The notes under the pieces were generated by a model that saw only the letters and a list, made by a program, of their open reading frames with translations, did no database searches and was not told the DNA's origin. The translations under genes were made by a program, and so were the position numbers. DNA of 34,195 nucleotides from a virus (taxonomy: Duplodnaviria; Heunggongvirae; Uroviricota; Caudoviricetes). Shown here one piece after another: positions 712 through 33,133 of this stretch. How positions within the stretch are numbered: position 1 is the first letter of the stretch; every line of letters begins with the position of its first letter. The DNA lies in the IMG/VR virus record IMGVR_UViG_2579778804_000007, positions 1 through 34,195 of that record; one strand, 5' to 3'.

Positions 712-852
712 TTACTGTTTACACTGCAAGAACGCCGCAAATTCTGACCACATGATGTTAAGCCTGAACTCACACGGTGACTTGTGTATCATCCAGACAA
801 TCATCAAAATAGTTATGCATAAAATGCTCACTATGATCGTTTTTTGCGGCAT
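712..852 (-). CDS. Hok/Gef-family type I toxin, 46 aa (copy 2)
   Basis: ORF MPQKTIIVSILCITILMIVWMIHKSPCEFRLNIMWSEFAAFLQCKQ; differs from copy 1 only by conservative substitutions (L/I, M/I, R/K, P/Q) despite nucleotide divergence, suggesting purifying selection. AAGGAG ribosome-binding site. Coordinates +/-2. Confidence 0.7.
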   Translation of the reverse strand: MPQKTIIVSILCITILMIVWMIHKSPCEFRLNIMWSEFAAFLQCKQ

Positions 853-23011: not shown

Positions 23012-23167
23012 TTACTGCTGACGGCGTTCCCGGAGTTCGGTCAGTGCCGCAAGTAAATTCTCCCACCACGTTTCTTCCACGACCGGGTTTTGTCGTGAAA
23101 GCAGCTGCTGTGCCGACTCAATCATTTTCTTCAGGTCTTTGTCGCTGATCCTCCTGATGTCGTTCAT
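23012..23167 (-). CDS. Small hypothetical protein, 51 aa
   Basis: Start chosen at MNDIRR with AAGGAG ribosome-binding site (track ORF 23012..23206). Confidence 0.4.
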   Translation of the reverse strand: MNDIRRISDKDLKKMIESAQQLLSRQNPVVEETWWENLLAALTELRERRQQ

Positions 23168-23214
23168 GGTGTGCTCCTTCAGTTTGCTGTTTCTGGTTAT
23201 GTTCATGGTCTTTG

Positions 23215-23619
23215 TTACCTGCGTGATTGCCTGTTGGCGGCCGAATGCACATAGCGGGCAATTGCCGCTTTTCGGTTAATCGATGCCAGTGTTCTGGTGA
23301 GTTCTGCGTTGTGTTTGTGTGCCTGCTCTTCGTGGTACTGCCGCATGATTTTTCCGGCAGGCGTGAGCGGCTCCGGCTCCCCGGGCGGACGGCGCGGACG
23401 AACGGCGACAAGCCAACTGCGGTTAGTGCTGTCCGGTCGTCCGTTGAGTATGTCGGTGATGATGGCCGTGGTGGTGCGATCGGGACTGACGACCGTGATT
23501 TCCAGCTCATCGCCAGGTTGTGGCCCCGTGGCAATGTTGTTCAGGGTCAGTAAGGGCGTGCGCTGGCGCATCAGTTCGTCAAAACGCTGTCGCTGCATGG
23601 CGCAATAAAAGCGGGTCAT
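23215..23619 (-). CDS. Hypothetical protein, 134 aa, immediately after gpA
   Basis: Start overlaps the gpA stop (coupled translation); no family recognised. Confidence 0.45.
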   Translation of the reverse strand: MTRFYCAMQRQRFDELMRQRTPLLTLNNIATGPQPGDELEITVVSPDRTTTAIITDILNGRPDSTNRSWLVAVRPRRPPGEPEPLTPAGKIMRQYHEEQAHKHNAELTRTLASINRKAAIARYVHSAANRQSRR

Positions 23620-28493: not shown

Positions 28494-29474
28494 TCACGTA
28501 TTGGCTGTGGCAAACATTGCGCTGTAAGTTGCATCTCCCGTTACCGGTCCGCAGTCCGGGCAGTAGCCACCGCCATGGCGACCGCAGGCGTTGCACTGTC
28601 TCAGGGTGGCGATAACCTCCGGTGCTGATTCCCGGGTTCTTGCGCCAACGCTTCGTGGTGCCTGTATGCAGTTCATCCGGTAACCCCGATAAATGCGTCG
28701 TGTTTCCGGTGTGTCGGAATTGGAGATGGTGATGCTGGTCATGCCGCCCGTTTCCTGTGAAAGGCGGTCAAGCGCTGCCCTCAGACGAACGTGCTCGCCT
28801 TCATCGAATGGTTTTCCGTAGGCGGTAAAATTGTCCCGGCCACTGAATTGCAGGTAAGGGGGATCGCAGTACACGCAAAGCGTGTTACCCATGCTGAACA
28901 GGTGGCTGGCACAGCTCAGCGTTTTTCGAAAATCGCCATGAACAAGCAGTGTTCGGGTGCTGTTTGCCTTGTCTGCAAATGCGCGGATTTCCCGTTCAGG
29001 GAAGTAGGGGGTCCGGTAGCCGCCGAAAGAAACGTTAAAGTCACCTTTTCCGTTCACCCGGTACAGGCCATTAAAGCAGTGCCGGTTGAGATACAAAAAC
29101 ATGGCGGCCAGTCGCAGTTCACGGCGGTCTCTCATTCCCGTTCTGCTACTCAGGAAGGCATGATTCTCTGCGTTAAAGGTTTCGCGAATGATGAGATAGT
29201 CACCCCTGTTGTTGTGGTTCAGGAACAGGGTTTTCGCCTCGTCGATCAGGCTGTCGGTGTTGTCCCTGGCTTGCCGGTAGAAATTAATCAGCGCACCATT
29301 GGAATCACCCAGGATGTAACGCTTGTAACTGGTGTTCATGAATACCGATGCGCCACCCACAAACGGCTCAACCAGGCAGTCTGCTTCTGGCAGATGCGCC
29401 TTCAGTGTGTTCATGATGCGACTTTTTCCGCCCACCCATTTCAGCGGCGTACCGGATAACAGTTCTTTGCTCAT
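28494..29474 (-). CDS. dam: DNA adenine methyltransferase (Dam-like) with C-terminal Cys4 zinc-ribbon extension
   Basis: DPPY catalytic motif and N-terminal SAM-binding region; C-terminal CNAC-x9-CPDC. Confidence 0.8.
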   Translation of the reverse strand: MSKELLSGTPLKWVGGKSRIMNTLKAHLPEADCLVEPFVGGASVFMNTSYKRYILGDSNGALINFYRQARDNTDSLIDEAKTLFLNHNNRGDYLIIRETFNAENHAFLSSRTGMRDRRELRLAAMFLYLNRHCFNGLYRVNGKGDFNVSFGGYRTPYFPEREIRAFADKANSTRTLLVHGDFRKTLSCASHLFSMGNTLCVYCDPPYLQFSGRDNFTAYGKPFDEGEHVRLRAALDRLSQETGGMTSITISNSDTPETRRIYRGYRMNCIQAPRSVGARTRESAPEVIATLRQCNACGRHGGGYCPDCGPVTGDATYSAMFATANT

Positions 29475-29677
29475 AACGCGGCCTCTTTGTTATAGGTTTC
29501 GTGCGTTAATAAATCCCATGACACCCCGTTGTTTTTGCTCAGCAGTCGCCAGCGAAAACCGATTCTTATTACCAGGTAGTCGTGGGGTTTTATGCGTGAA
29601 AAATTCCGCACGCCGTCGCGGAATAAACGCAGTGATGCGCGGGCTTTTCTTTCCACGTTCAGGGGGGGCAGCAACAC
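29471..29677 (-). CDS. Hypothetical small protein, 68 aa (GTG start), coupled to dam
   Basis: Stop overlaps dam ATG (ATGA); an alternative overlapping 63-aa ORF exists (29490..29681). Confidence 0.3.
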   Translation of the reverse strand: MLLPPLNVERKARASLRLFRDGVRNFSRIKPHDYLVIRIGFRWRLLSKNNGVSWDLLTHETYNKEAAL

Positions 29678-29706: not shown

Positions 29707-30297
29707 TCATATGCTCAGGAATGGTGTTGTGAAGCGTTGCCAGATTTCTGACACGACCTTTGCCTGGTAAATGGCATCGCCCAGTGCAGTGTGAGCAATG
29801 GTCTCTTTGCCTGATCGGCCTGGCATTCTCCAGCCGGAGGACTTAGCCATGTCGATAAGCGAACGCATACAGCGCTCGTTCCAGTAGCGCCACGGAACGC
29901 TTTTTTCTCCGGCCGTGCGCTTTATGGCGGATCTCAGGATCGGGAAATCAAAGGATGCGCCCTTGCACCATACGATCAGTTGATTGCCTAGGGTTTCGTC
30001 TTGCATGTTGCGCGAAATGAACGCCAGAAATTCGGTTACTGCCGCAAGTTCTGTTCCCTCTGCGTTGAGCAGGCAGGCTCTGGCCTTCGCGGATTCCCCG
30101 GCCCACCATACGGCGGTTGATGCATTGACGGTTCCGCCGTTGCGCTCTGAATCCACCGGGTCGATGAGTTTCTCAAACTGCTTGCCCAGCTTTCCGGTGA
30201 ACGGGTCGAAAAACACCGCGCCGATCGCGAATATGACTGCATCCGGTCCGGTACCCAGTGTTTCGGTGTCGATCATGAGATGGTTCACTGTGTGCAC
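29707..30297 (-). CDS. DEDD-type 3'-5' exonuclease (DnaQ-like fold)
   Basis: LMIDTETLG Exo I motif near N-terminus and later H/D motifs; start codon uncertain (GTG candidates at 30297 and 30288). Confidence 0.6.
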   Translation of the reverse strand: MHTVNHLMIDTETLGTGPDAVIFAIGAVFFDPFTGKLGKQFEKLIDPVDSERNGGTVNASTAVWWAGESAKARACLLNAEGTELAAVTEFLAFISRNMQDETLGNQLIVWCKGASFDFPILRSAIKRTAGEKSVPWRYWNERCMRSLIDMAKSSGWRMPGRSGKETIAHTALGDAIYQAKVVSEIWQRFTTPFLSI

Positions 30298-30518
30298 TCC
30301 TTCTGTTCGGCGTTGTTCGTGAGCGTTGCAATCAGTCGTTCAATGGATGAACAGGTTTCCTCCGGGGAGGTGTGCTTCTCTCTCGCTGTGTCAACCAGGT
30401 CACGCAGTAATTCGCAGATATGCGCACGTTCGGCTTTTCTTGCGGTCATGCTGATGTGTGCATGTGGCTGTTCCGGTCTGGCGGTTATTTCTCTGCTGGG
30501 TGATTCGGCAGTTCTCAT
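30285..30518 (-). CDS. Hypothetical small protein, 77 aa
   Basis: AGGAG 7 nt upstream of ATG 30518 (track ORF extends to 30542); stop overlaps exonuclease start. Confidence 0.4.
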   Translation of the reverse strand: MRTAESPSREITARPEQPHAHISMTARKAERAHICELLRDLVDTAREKHTSPEETCSSIERLIATLTNNAEQKECTQ

Positions 30519-30623
30519 TTGTTGACTCCTGAAAAAAGACAAAGGGAAGCCGAAGGCATGAGTGCCTTAATTAATTGCTTGTGTGTTTTCTGGTGTTATT
30601 CCGCTCCTGCTTTCGGCTTCAGA

Positions 30624-30719
30624 TTATCCCCAGATCTTCAGGGCTAACCAGATAAGCGCGCACACCTGAAATATCAGCCATACAGTGGCGATGGTGAGTA
30701 TTGCTTTTACATTCTTCAT
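30624..30719 (-). CDS. Short hydrophobic peptide, 31 aa
   Basis: MKNVKAILTIATVWLIFQVCALIWLALKIWG; single TM helix; no clear ribosome-binding site, 12 nt after the upstream peptide stop; not in ORF track. Confidence 0.35.
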   Translation of the reverse strand: MKNVKAILTIATVWLIFQVCALIWLALKIWG

Positions 30720-30731
30720 AAAGTTTTTGCT

Positions 30732-30857
30732 TTATTTGCGGCGTTTGTCGCCAGTAAAAAATAATTCGATATCCTTCAGTGCGTGGATAATTCGCATAAT
30801 GCCGATTGCCATAAGCACGGAGATAATCAGAATTACCCATGAAAGAAATATGCTCAT
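30732..30857 (-). CDS. Short hydrophobic peptide, 41 aa
   Basis: MSIFLSWVILIISVLMAIGIMRIIHALKDIELFFTGDKRRK; AGGAG 7 nt upstream; ATG overlaps TGA of the upstream 80-aa gene (ATGA); not in ORF track. Confidence 0.45.
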   Translation of the reverse strand: MSIFLSWVILIISVLMAIGIMRIIHALKDIELFFTGDKRRK

Positions 30858-31096
30858 GCTGCCGCTCCTGTGAAGTAAGGCTCAACAATTTCACCTTCAA
30901 ACAGTTCGGCCACAATAACTTTTAATTCTTCCAGTGCTTCGCGGTCATCGCTGCCCAGCGCGCAGTTATACAGTCCCATAATTGCGCCGCGCAGTGAGTT
31001 ACGAAGGCTTTCATCCTTAGTTACGCCCCGGTTTGCAAGTTCGAAGTGGTAACGCTGCAACGCGTTATTAATAAGTATTTTGTAGGCTTCGATCAT
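30854..31096 (-). CDS. Hypothetical protein, 80 aa
   Basis: ORF in operon register, coupled to the downstream short peptide gene. Confidence 0.45.
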   Translation of the reverse strand: MIEAYKILINNALQRYHFELANRGVTKDESLRNSLRGAIMGLYNCALGSDDREALEELKVIVAELFEGEIVEPYFTGAAA

Positions 31097-31115: not shown

Positions 31116-31454
31116 TCAGCGGCGATGTTCCGGGTGCTGAAAACTGCGACCGCTGATTAACCGGTCTGCCGTTCTTAATGCTTCGTGCAGGGTGAAATCC
31201 TGCCCGAACTGCTCATCTCCGCGAGTCAGGGAGTAACAGGTATTTCCGGTAATCGGGTTGCGTGCGCCTCTGTGTATGACAATTCCGGCATCATTAATCA
31301 GCCAGGTGTGTTTACCGGTTTGTTTAACCAGATGCCCGTCAGGTGTGGCGTGCGTTTCCTGCAGACTGTAGTGCGTGTTGCTGCGTGATGCACTGGTTGA
31401 GAAACGGGCTGCGTGGCGTTCTGTGCCAGTGCGGAAGCTGCGTCGCTGTGTCAT
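31116..31454 (-). CDS. Hypothetical protein, 112 aa
   Basis: ORF following a 300-bp gap that holds a palindromic operator-like site. Confidence 0.45.
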   Translation of the reverse strand: MTQRRSFRTGTERHAARFSTSASRSNTHYSLQETHATPDGHLVKQTGKHTWLINDAGIVIHRGARNPITGNTCYSLTRGDEQFGQDFTLHEALRTADRLISGRSFQHPEHRR

Positions 31455-31489: not shown

Positions 31490-31530
31490 TACCGGGATGT
31501 TTAACCACGCCCGGCGCGTGGTATTCTGGT
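31490..31530. promoter_or_regulatory. Palindrome CCACGC-ccggc-GCGTGG inside a promoter-like TTTAAC...TATTCT arrangement; candidate operator between divergent transcription units
   Basis: Inverted repeat seen directly in the gap between minus-strand early genes, just upstream of the + strand ORF at 31562. Confidence 0.35.
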
Positions 31531-31561
31531 GTTTCCACACAACCAGAAAAAGGAGATAGCA

Positions 31562-31786
31562 ATGTCTTACGACGATGAATTAATAAAAATGCTTAAATCA
31601 GTAATTGAAATCGTGGATAAAATCCCCGAAGTTCCTCCGTCTTCTGATGATAAGTACGATCAAATCAGAGATCTGGCTAACGATGTCCGCGAAAAAGTAC
31701 TTCATAAATACCCTCGCAAGAGTTCCTGGAACTTTTCTAAGGGACCAACATGCCGGGTTACTCCGGCATTTTTCTTTTGTAAATAG
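31562..31786 (+). CDS. Hypothetical + strand protein, 74 aa, in AT-rich island
   Basis: AGGAG 8 nt upstream of ATG 31562; convergent with, and 3'-overlapping, the minus-strand 131-aa gene. Confidence 0.4.
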   Translation: MSYDDELIKMLKSVIEIVDKIPEVPPSSDDKYDQIRDLANDVREKVLHKYPRKSSWNFSKGPTCRVTPAFFFCK

Positions 31787-32159: not shown

Positions 32160-32684
32160 TCACCGTTCGTTTACATCCTGGCTCTGTTCCAGCTTTGACT
32201 TTCTGCCTTTGTAAACCCGTTTTCCATTGACGGTCTGGCAATCTTCCTTATCAGCCGGGGTAAACTTTCTTTTCTGGCGGTCGTATGTCCAGTAGCTTTT
32301 CCAGTTGTGCCATTCTGGTGGCTCACATTCCGGGAGTTCGTCGGCCAGCTTGTCCCACTCTCTGACGTTAAACCACCAAACACCATCCGAATTCTCATCT
32401 TCAGGGTTTGAGCGGGTTTTATGCCCTGGCATCTGGTTACGCTGAAGAGCTGCGCGTAATGCTGTTTTTGTTAATCCGATGTAGGCGGCCCCTTTTTCAA
32501 GTGAGCAAAGCCCGGCTATTGGGCCATCCAGCCGCAGGGTTGCCCCTTTTTTATATGTGCGCTGTGGCTTTTGTTCGTCGTTGTTATCTGTTGCTTCTTG
32601 TTGACTGGTATCGGCGTTGATGTACGCCGCTCCAGTTGTGTGATCGGTGTCAGATAACTCTTTATCGGCAATGAAGTCCCGCAT
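32160..32684 (-). CDS. Cox-like helix-turn-helix protein (putative excisionase / early regulator) with acidic N-terminal extension, 174 aa
   Basis: First gene of the early operon, divergent from the repressor; HTH AAYIGLTKTALRAALQRN then Trp-rich segment resembling P2 Cox; GAGAGGA ribosome-binding site. Confidence 0.45.
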   Translation of the reverse strand: MRDFIADKELSDTDHTTGAAYINADTSQQEATDNNDEQKPQRTYKKGATLRLDGPIAGLCSLEKGAAYIGLTKTALRAALQRNQMPGHKTRSNPEDENSDGVWWFNVREWDKLADELPECEPPEWHNWKSYWTYDRQKRKFTPADKEDCQTVNGKRVYKGRKSKLEQSQDVNER

Positions 32685-32785
32685 TTGTTATCCTCTCGCA
32701 CAGGTGCGCCTATTGCACCTTATGAAGGTTTGTTTTGGTTTGTTTAATGTCGAAATTACGACACTTTTGCGAGGATTTTAGTGGT
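32685..32785. promoter_or_regulatory. Immunity switch region: divergent early and repressor promoters with inverted repeat GGTGC-gcctatt-GCACC (candidate operator)
   Basis: Intergenic between divergent Cox-like and repressor genes; palindrome seen directly; promoter hexamers not confidently assigned. Confidence 0.4.
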
Positions 32786-33133
32786 ATGAATTCGACACTG
32801 TCAATAAGTATCGGTGAAAAAATCTTGATGATCCGGAAAAGTGAGAGGCTTACAAGGAAGCAATTCTTTGAGCTTACAGGGATTCCTGTTAATACGCAGA
32901 GGTATTACGAAACGGGAAGGCAAGATGGAATCGGAAGTGAGATCTTATTAAAGATCACAAAAAATTTACGTTTTAAAAAATATGCACTTTGGTTAACAAC
33001 TGATGAAACGTTTGAAGCTGGAGGTCAAATTGCCCCGGCTCTCTCTCTTGATGGATCTTCTCAGTCGGAGGGCGATCTGGCTTCAATCGACGTTACCCAA
33101 AAATCATCCCGATCAGGCCGCAATGCTGGCTGA
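32786..33133 (+). CDS. CI-type immunity repressor (XRE-family helix-turn-helix)
   Basis: HTH IRKSERLTRKQFFELTGIPVNTQRYYETGR; start at ATG 32786 (track ORF from 32735); immediately upstream of the integrase, as P2 C-int. Confidence 0.7.
   Translation: MNSTLSISIGEKILMIRKSERLTRKQFFELTGIPVNTQRYYETGRQDGIGSEILLKITKNLRFKKYALWLTTDETFEAGGQIAPALSLDGSSQSEGDLASIDVTQKSSRSGRNAG

Follow-up and report, generated by a model that had tools for sequence, protein, structure and literature searches.

Small single-pass inner-membrane proteins of 30-50 aa with a short charged tail, such as MgrB, AcrZ, MgtS and KdpF, serve as regulators in bacteria. The two adjacent short ORFs described here, ORF41 and ORF31, resemble these regulators in size (30-50 aa), in one predicted transmembrane helix and in a short charged tail. 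Furthermore, it is chiefly the helix that is conserved, which points to action by helix-helix contact with some larger membrane protein. However, no sequence similarity to MgrB, AcrZ, MgtS or KdpF exists, and ORF41 and ORF31 are phage-encoded and stem from an early lytic operon. By sequence, ORF41 belongs to the family of P88 gp07 (YP_009113050.1), together with WP_016232595.1 and WP_000110304.1, both of which are entered as hypothetical proteins. It shows full-length similarity to this family, shares 78-98% identity with its copies in E. coli prophages, occupies the same site after a DUF4754 gene with an ATGA overlap and shares one predicted N-terminal helix with the motif F-x-SW-x-x-LI...A-x-G-I-M-R-I-I. 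In contrast to ORF41, P88-type copies end four codons sooner (37 aa) and thus lack its KRRK tail, while some other copies of the family carry frameshifted 45-aa tails. The homologues in P88 (gp07) and vB_EcoM-569R5 are annotated as (putative) membrane protein.

Both ORFs lie in a stretch of 34,195 nt, the whole of which was analyzed and is called the window hereafter. It represents a prophage of E. coli that is P2-like (Peduoviridae, Xuanwuvirus-like). The same gene order recurs in the annotation of E. coli chromosomes, at up to 94% DNA identity, and of phage P88 (Peduoviridae, Xuanwuvirus). The first-pass annotation had placed the short ORFs in an early operon, which is borne out by the surrounding genes:

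33188 onward, plus strand: integrase
32735-33133, plus strand: C-type repressor
32804-32775, minus strand: near-consensus promoter TTGACA-18-TAAAAT
32160-32684, minus strand: Cox-family gene
after the Cox-family gene and listed before the DUF4761 gene, minus strand: 131-aa ORF
31116-31454, minus strand: DUF4761 gene
30854-31096, minus strand: DUF4754 gene, 80 aa (Pfam PF15946, E=1.7e-16; phrog_2549)
30865-30869, minus strand: Shine-Dalgarno sequence AGGAG of ORF41, 7 nt before the ATG, as read from the sequence
30732-30857 (30857 to 30732), minus strand: ORF41, 41-aa predicted single-pass membrane protein of the P88 gp07 family, MSIFLSWVILIISVLMAIGIMRIIHALKDIELFFTGDKRRK
30600-30731, minus strand: accessory cassette of 132 nt between AAATAA and ATAACACC
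30624-30719 (30719 to 30624), minus strand: ORF31, 31-aa hydrophobic peptide, MKNVKAILTIATVWLIFQVCALIWLALKIWG, 12 nt past the ORF41 stop
30285-30518, minus strand: orf77 (phrog_22206), the next early gene, with its ATG at 30518

Downstream of orf77, whose counterparts in relatives are annotated as a 76-77-aa hypothetical protein, follow a 3'-5' exonuclease, a ParE-like ORF, a Dam-type methylase and, farther on, a replication endonuclease. In short, integrase and C repressor are followed by a face-to-face early promoter and cox, after which the minus-strand early operon leads toward replication gene A. A scan with the DUF4754 protein against species-representative genomes gave no match, nor did PDB sequence searches with ORF41 and with DUF4754, and our search of the literature on DUF4754, P88 and the peptide sequences found nothing on function.

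To allow a comparison between relatives, 31 distinct haplotypes of the region were compiled, namely the window and 30 others. They were taken from E. coli complete genomes, from IMG/VR contigs found via DUF4754 or a DNA pattern, from contigs with variant ORF41 proteins and from three P88-like phages. Most were retrieved by ORF41 protein identity, which biases the set toward an intact ORF41, while the DNA-seeded and DUF4754-seeded loci agree with the others. A search with a degenerate DNA pattern matched only E. albertii, one probable contaminant contig and one chance match.

ORF41 begins with an ATG (30857-30855) that overlaps the TGA (30856-30854) of the DUF4754 gene as ATGA. An identical overlap is found in the annotation of E. 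coli relatives and of P88 (L001-L005, L048 and L050). Its Shine-Dalgarno sequence is kept in all 31 haplotypes, with an anti-SD duplex energy of -4.2 to -9.3 kcal/mol. Selection on the amino acid sequence is evident from the substitutions: in its own frame we counted 33 synonymous and 38 non-synonymous changes (dN/dS ~0.33, P=5e-6), compared to dN/dS values of 0.9 and 3.4 in the other frames, and pairwise Nei-Gojobori dN/dS ranges from 0.06 to 0.49. Among the prophages ORF41 is 68-98% identical, whereas the coupled DUF4754 protein reaches only 27-44%, and mosaic breakpoints coincide exactly with the start and stop of ORF41. A profile search returned 146 homologous clusters (37, 41 or 45 aa), nearly all from Escherichia and all named hypothetical. 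In the assembly collection, variants of ORF41 occur in hundreds of blocks, and at least 1,000 contigs carry one of them (P0010). Comparison by phmmer and hmmsearch to 41-aa E. coli proteins gave E values of 1e-12 to 1e-24, tblastn against P88 gp07 gave 68% identity (E=2e-10), and a protein identical to the ORF41 product of the window occurs in NCBI E. coli records. Judged by these sequence comparisons, ORF41 is a real and conserved core gene of this phage group that has been annotated before, both by PGAP in RefSeq and in P88.

ORF31 follows in the same reading frame as ORF41. We considered a read-through fusion of the two and rejected it, since all haplotypes retain the TAA and a shared frame is a 1-in-3 chance. 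The cassette that carries ORF31 consists of a 12-nt spacer, the ORF itself and 24 nt that include the left arm of an inverted repeat. It is missing from six haplotypes of sister prophages, which have just 81-82 nt from ORF41 to orf77; in five of these (U22-U25 and U27, from L005, L033-L037 and L047) the junction reads AAATAA directly followed by ATA(A/G)CACC. In four further haplotypes the downstream region is unrelated.

Where the cassette is present, ORF31 is intact in all cases (22 of 22 haplotypes), with lengths of 31, 33 or 34 aa. These differences in length result from an in-frame 3-nt indel and from a 1-nt indel that swaps only the last few residues. Notwithstanding 31 nucleotide changes, the frame is open throughout. 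Within it, 14 synonymous stand against 15 non-synonymous changes (dN/dS ~0.32, P=0.0025), compared to dN/dS values of 1.1 and 1.7 in the other frames; this estimate draws on only 29 substitutions within 84 nt, which were counted across 10 distinct core sequences with no phylogeny applied. Pairwise dN/dS is 0.08-0.58, and 0.08-0.26 in the most diverged pairs. Hence ORF31 shows what is expected of a coding gene, an open frame and purifying selection limited to its own frame across relatives, and it is probably a real, lineage-specific accessory gene for a small membrane protein. It is also an under-annotated orphan: an exhaustive HMMER search of 1.84 billion representative proteins found only its own family, and tblastn against phage and plasmid collections gave no match. 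Only a few GenBank records annotate it, while PGAP left it uncalled in both cassette-bearing complete genomes inspected, as did the gene calls of 20 further cassette-bearing loci.

The first-pass annotation had called both peptides from the DNA alone: a 41-aa one with an AGGAG ribosome-binding site and an ATGA coupling to the upstream gene, and behind it a 31-aa one, each with one predicted transmembrane helix. All of these elements are present in the sequence, and both short frames turned out to bear frame-specific signatures of purifying selection. The description of the two ORFs as missed holds for the ORF track supplied with the DNA; it does not hold for ORF41, which RefSeq and P88 include, nor for ORF31 as far as the few GenBank records are concerned.

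The predicted helices are consistent with hydropathy and with structural models. The best hydrophobic 19-mer scores 2.75 in ORF41 and 2.31 in ORF31 on the Kyte-Doolittle scale, and the summed Hessa dG is -3.6 and -1.5, respectively. AlphaFold2 models ORF41 as a single helix over residues 2-38, with a pLDDT of 85-94 over residues 1-30, and ORF31 as a single helix over residues 2-30. Only five of the 142 ATG-initiated ORFs of 25-60 aa in the six frames of the window are equally hydrophobic. Two of these five are the adjacent ORF41 and ORF31, and thus a chance pairing is unlikely. Pfam, PHROGs, NCBIfam and PADLOC gave no match for either peptide.

Based on these results, a mode of action can be proposed. 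ORF41 is translationally coupled to the DUF4754 gene through ATGA; its product has a predicted transmembrane helix at the N-terminus and ends in a short tail with positive charge. Its topology is predicted to be N-out/C-in because of the positive-inside rule and six Lys/Arg residues in the C-terminal flank, while ORF31 is predicted to be N-in/C-out. Some lineages, that of the window among them, have gained the 132-nt cassette directly behind ORF41 and with it the hydrophobic ORF31 of 31-34 aa. Translation of ORF31 most likely depends on ribosomes that terminate at the ORF41 stop and re-initiate 12 nt on. Both peptides may enter the inner membrane early in lytic growth, where, by analogy with other small membrane proteins, they might bind and modulate a larger membrane protein or complex of host or phage. 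ORF41 might act jointly with the co-translated DUF4754 protein. ORF41 is a candidate early membrane factor of P88-like P2 relatives, host-directed or replication-associated and tightly coupled to DUF4754. Taken together, we consider it likely that the locus is best explained as part of a P2-like prophage with a coupled ORF41, a cassette-borne ORF31, a membrane role of both peptides, a chance 98-aa ORF over the same DNA and an inverted repeat confined to one lineage. The outcome is a correction of the annotation and a modest lead, while current understanding stays as it is.

Other explanations of the cassette have to be weighed. It might be non-coding filler or an RNA element, with ORF31 untranslated and its synonymous excess a coincidence in a short and recently spread sequence. 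The failure of PGAP and of the gene calls at 20 loci to report ORF31 fits this idea, as do the lack of homologues beyond its lineage, the small sample of substitutions and the fact that sister prophages dispense with the cassette. In addition, ORF31 has no Shine-Dalgarno sequence, the anti-SD duplex energy being just -0.1 to -2.9 kcal/mol in all haplotypes. However, non-coding DNA would hardly keep this frame open in 22 of 22 haplotypes through 31 changes and two indels, nor confine a low dN/dS to one frame and lower it to 0.08 in the most diverged pair. Moreover, ORF31 is one of the five most hydrophobic short ORFs and sits directly behind another of them. We therefore regard an untranslated ORF31 as unlikely and retain the reading as an accessory membrane-protein gene.

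Besides the two short ORFs, the stretch between the cassette and orf77 deserves attention. Its features are as follows:

30519-30599, minus strand: near-invariant leader of 81 nt upstream of orf77
30553-30568, minus strand: small conserved hairpin (palindrome), AAGGCA-CTCA-TGCCTT in the window
30532-30543, minus strand: T-rich run TTTGTCTTTTTT within the leader
30526-30530, minus strand: Shine-Dalgarno sequence AGGAG of orf77 within the leader

The invariance of this leader was unexpected. It has the lowest diversity of the early region (pi 0.027) and is 90% identical even in prophages whose flanking genes can no longer be aligned as DNA. The hairpin reads AAGGCAT-TC-ATGCCTT in most relatives, with the general form AAGGCA(Y)TCATGCCTT, and it is found in nearly every predicted minimum-energy fold of relatives. 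In the alignment 98% of its cells are paired, yet it is invariant and thus offers no covariation to score. It ends at 30553, 9 nt ahead of the start of the T-rich run (30543). Rfam gave no match in the region, leader included, and no internal promoter was seen in the leader on either strand. The palindrome AAGGCAT-TC-ATGCCTT was also considered as a repeated operator, which was rejected as it is unique in the window. One might speculate that the leader and the optional ORF31 cassette form an undescribed cis-regulatory checkpoint in the P2-like early operon, an idea that we rate as quite improbable. If true, such a checkpoint would lie between the first early genes and those for replication and modification, and in cassette-bearing lineages the translation of ORF31 would modulate RNA folding at this point.

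An inverted repeat spans the cassette border:

30604-30620, minus strand: left (5') arm, beginning 3 nt past the ORF31 stop codon
30546-30562, minus strand: right (3') arm, overlapping the 3' half of the small conserved hairpin

The first-pass annotation had reported two arms about 57 nt apart, followed by a T-run on the minus strand, and these are present: a 9/9 core consists of GAAGCCGAA at 30546-30554 and TTCGGCTTC at 30612-30620 with a spacing of 57 nt, extends to 15/17 complementarity with a 41-nt gap and is followed by CCTTTGTCTTTTTT (30545-30532) on the minus strand. As such, a bare 9-bp inverted repeat is unremarkable in the window, in which 34 perfect ones with loops of 3-80 nt were observed, compared to ~13 in Markov simulations. 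Within the window, however, the repeat resembles the trp, his and pheA attenuators, in which a short ORF ends before one arm of mutually exclusive helices and a U-rich run comes after. The cassette would then be a translation-sensing attenuator with ORF31 as its leader peptide: a ribosome that stops at the UAA of ORF31 (30626-30624) would mask the left arm (30620-30604) and keep the long helix before the U-rich run from forming, in favour of the small hairpin, and orf77, the exonuclease, the ParE-like gene, Dam and onward would be transcribed only if ORF31 is translated. The geometry of the window fits this scheme. Long helix and small hairpin are mutually exclusive there, the long helix is the minimum-energy fold (-28 kcal/mol), the ORF31 stop codon lies 3 nt ahead of the left arm, a U-rich run follows the right arm, and three window-specific substitutions each strengthen the long helix.

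However, this geometry is not conserved in relatives. While the right arm belongs to the least variable part of the early region (pi 0.027), the left arm falls in the most variable one (pi 0.231) and is mutated or missing in relatives, being absent in U22-U27. Of the 15 pairs, 7 do not form in some of the nine distinct leaders, and six leaders have lost the central G-C; compensatory changes were not found for any pair, and the result was equalled in 319 of 500 shuffles. The long helix is predicted to be weaker or absent in several relatives and is impossible in the prophages that lack the cassette. With a z-score of -1.8 the fold of the repeat region is not significantly more stable than its shuffles. 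An intrinsic (Rho-independent) terminator has a G+C-rich stem, a 3-8-nt loop, a U-run within 0-2 nt and a stem that is maintained in related sequences, whereas the loop of the long helix measures 41-57 nt and its stem is not maintained; the terminator scan detected no minus-strand site between 30519 and 30623. ORF31 also differs from the leader peptides of trp, his and pheA, as it lacks a run of regulatory codons and its amino acid sequence is under purifying selection, which is unexpected for a mere leader. Thus an attenuator is very unlikely, and the long-range inverted repeat is, as far as the compared haplotypes tell, a feature of the lineage of the window and not a conserved terminator. 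While the first-pass annotation was right in its gene calls, its suggestion of a terminator or attenuator found no support.

Hok, Ldr, TisB and Ibs are likewise short hydrophobic peptides that often reside on mobile elements, and ORF31 is located on a discrete cassette. ORF31, or both peptides, might accordingly be a type I toxin-like membrane poison under the control of an antisense RNA, comparable to Hok/Sok. Size, lysines at the N-terminus ahead of a single hydrophobic helix, and the presence or absence as a cassette are reminiscent of type I toxins, and a Hok-family ORF is indeed encoded elsewhere in the window (712-852, minus strand). The model library that detected this Hok-family ORF gave no hit for ORF41 or ORF31, and neither peptide matches a toxin model of NCBIfam, Pfam or PADLOC. 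In contrast to the known toxins, neither a dedicated promoter nor an antisense RNA was detected: sequence scans found no antisense RNA gene with a promoter, Rfam listed none, and the sole promoter-like site nearby on the plus strand (30806-30833) scores 9/12, with counts at chance. ORF31 instead stands in line within an operon, 12 nt after another gene. A toxin is thus a highly improbable interpretation of peptides that we prefer to see as membrane-protein partners.

The remaining feature is the ORF that the track had reported over the same DNA:

30619-30915, minus strand: 98-aa ORF, a spurious overlapping frame with a hydrophilic product

That it is the true gene and the short hydrophobic frames are its by-products can be dismissed, for although the window has no longer open frame across this DNA, it has in-frame stop codons in 30 of the 30 other haplotypes, which already refutes this reading, shows a non-synonymous excess over ORF41 (dN/dS 2.3-3.4), overlaps the well-supported DUF4754 gene, has no credible family match above noise and is absent as an exact sequence from a collection of 15 billion proteins. 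Based on this comparison, the 98-aa ORF is a spurious frame that is open by chance. The first-pass annotation had found it less protein-like and had proposed a comparison of synonymous and non-synonymous change by frame, in which the short frames proved conserved and the 98-aa frame did not; the opposite pattern was not seen. The annotation of small membrane proteins is systematically incomplete, and the present locus illustrates two sides of this: ORF41, with only 41 aa, surpasses all of its neighbours in conservation, and the 31-aa ORF31 was skipped in all gene calls and PGAP annotations inspected, with a longer spurious ORF reported over the same DNA. A further short ORF was noticed in the divergent prophage L051, where the same place is occupied by an unannotated hydrophobic ORF of 34 aa with the same ATGA coupling.

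The least variable part of the early region is the 81-nt leader that precedes orf77 (window 30519-30599, minus strand), with a pi of 0.027 as compared to 0.045-0.11 for the genes. In prophages whose flanking genes are no longer alignable, 90% identity is still kept across this leader. Most relatives carry within it a 7-2-7 palindrome, AAGGCAT-TC-ATGCCTT, which occurs only once in the window. A comparison of the leader against Rfam gave no match.

At the position of ORF41, the 41-aa membrane-protein gene, one of the compared loci (L051, from E. coli SCU-106, NZ_CP053234.1) encodes a hydrophobic ORF that lacks annotation:

L051 1582-1703, 34-aa hydrophobic ORF, MSSTLIIIASWVILLASFVVSYFVVKLLTQYLNL

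It is coupled by ATGA to a divergent DUF4754 gene and looks like a replacement of ORF41, either distant or analogous. The intergenic region that follows the 37-aa gp07 gene differs in the P88-like phages L048 (2615-2700), L049 and L050. A small hairpin is found there after gp07 and shows a compensatory change (CCGC-ATTC-GCGG vs CCGT-ATTA-ACGG). Furthermore, a P88-type DUF4754-gp07 locus is carried by L054, a contig labelled Vagococcus sp. WN89Y, which is a Gram-positive genus; its presence on this contig is probably the result of contamination or mis-binning.

Besides the leader and the ORF41 position, four ORFs of the window were recorded:

712-852, minus strand, 46-aa hydrophobic ORF matching HokA/Hok type I toxin models, MPQKTIIVSILCITILMIVWMIHKSPCEFRLNIMWSEFAAFLQCKQ
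23157-23279, plus strand, very hydrophobic 40-aa ORF starting with ATG, MSFMVCSFSLLFLVMFMVFVTCVIACWRPNAHSGQLPLFG
29474-29677, minus strand, 68-aa ORF with a ParE-like toxin domain (PF24732, E=2e-17)
31529-31786, plus strand, ORF that runs against the early operon and is located between DUF4761 and the 131-aa gene

The ParE-like ORF lies between an exonuclease gene and a Dam methylase gene, and its end overlaps the start of the latter. No obvious antitoxin gene adjoins it, and it is annotated in some relatives only. For the 40-aa ORF no family match was obtained, and it may be spurious. The match of the 46-aa ORF to the Hok models (E=4e-10) did not reach the curated cutoff; this opposite end of the window possibly harbors a hok/sok-like locus. 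The plus-strand ORF at 31529-31786 has at its end a terminator-like hairpin with a T-run behind it (31750-31769), and relatives have a 64-aa hypothetical protein annotated at this site. This ORF may represent an insert with independent transcription.
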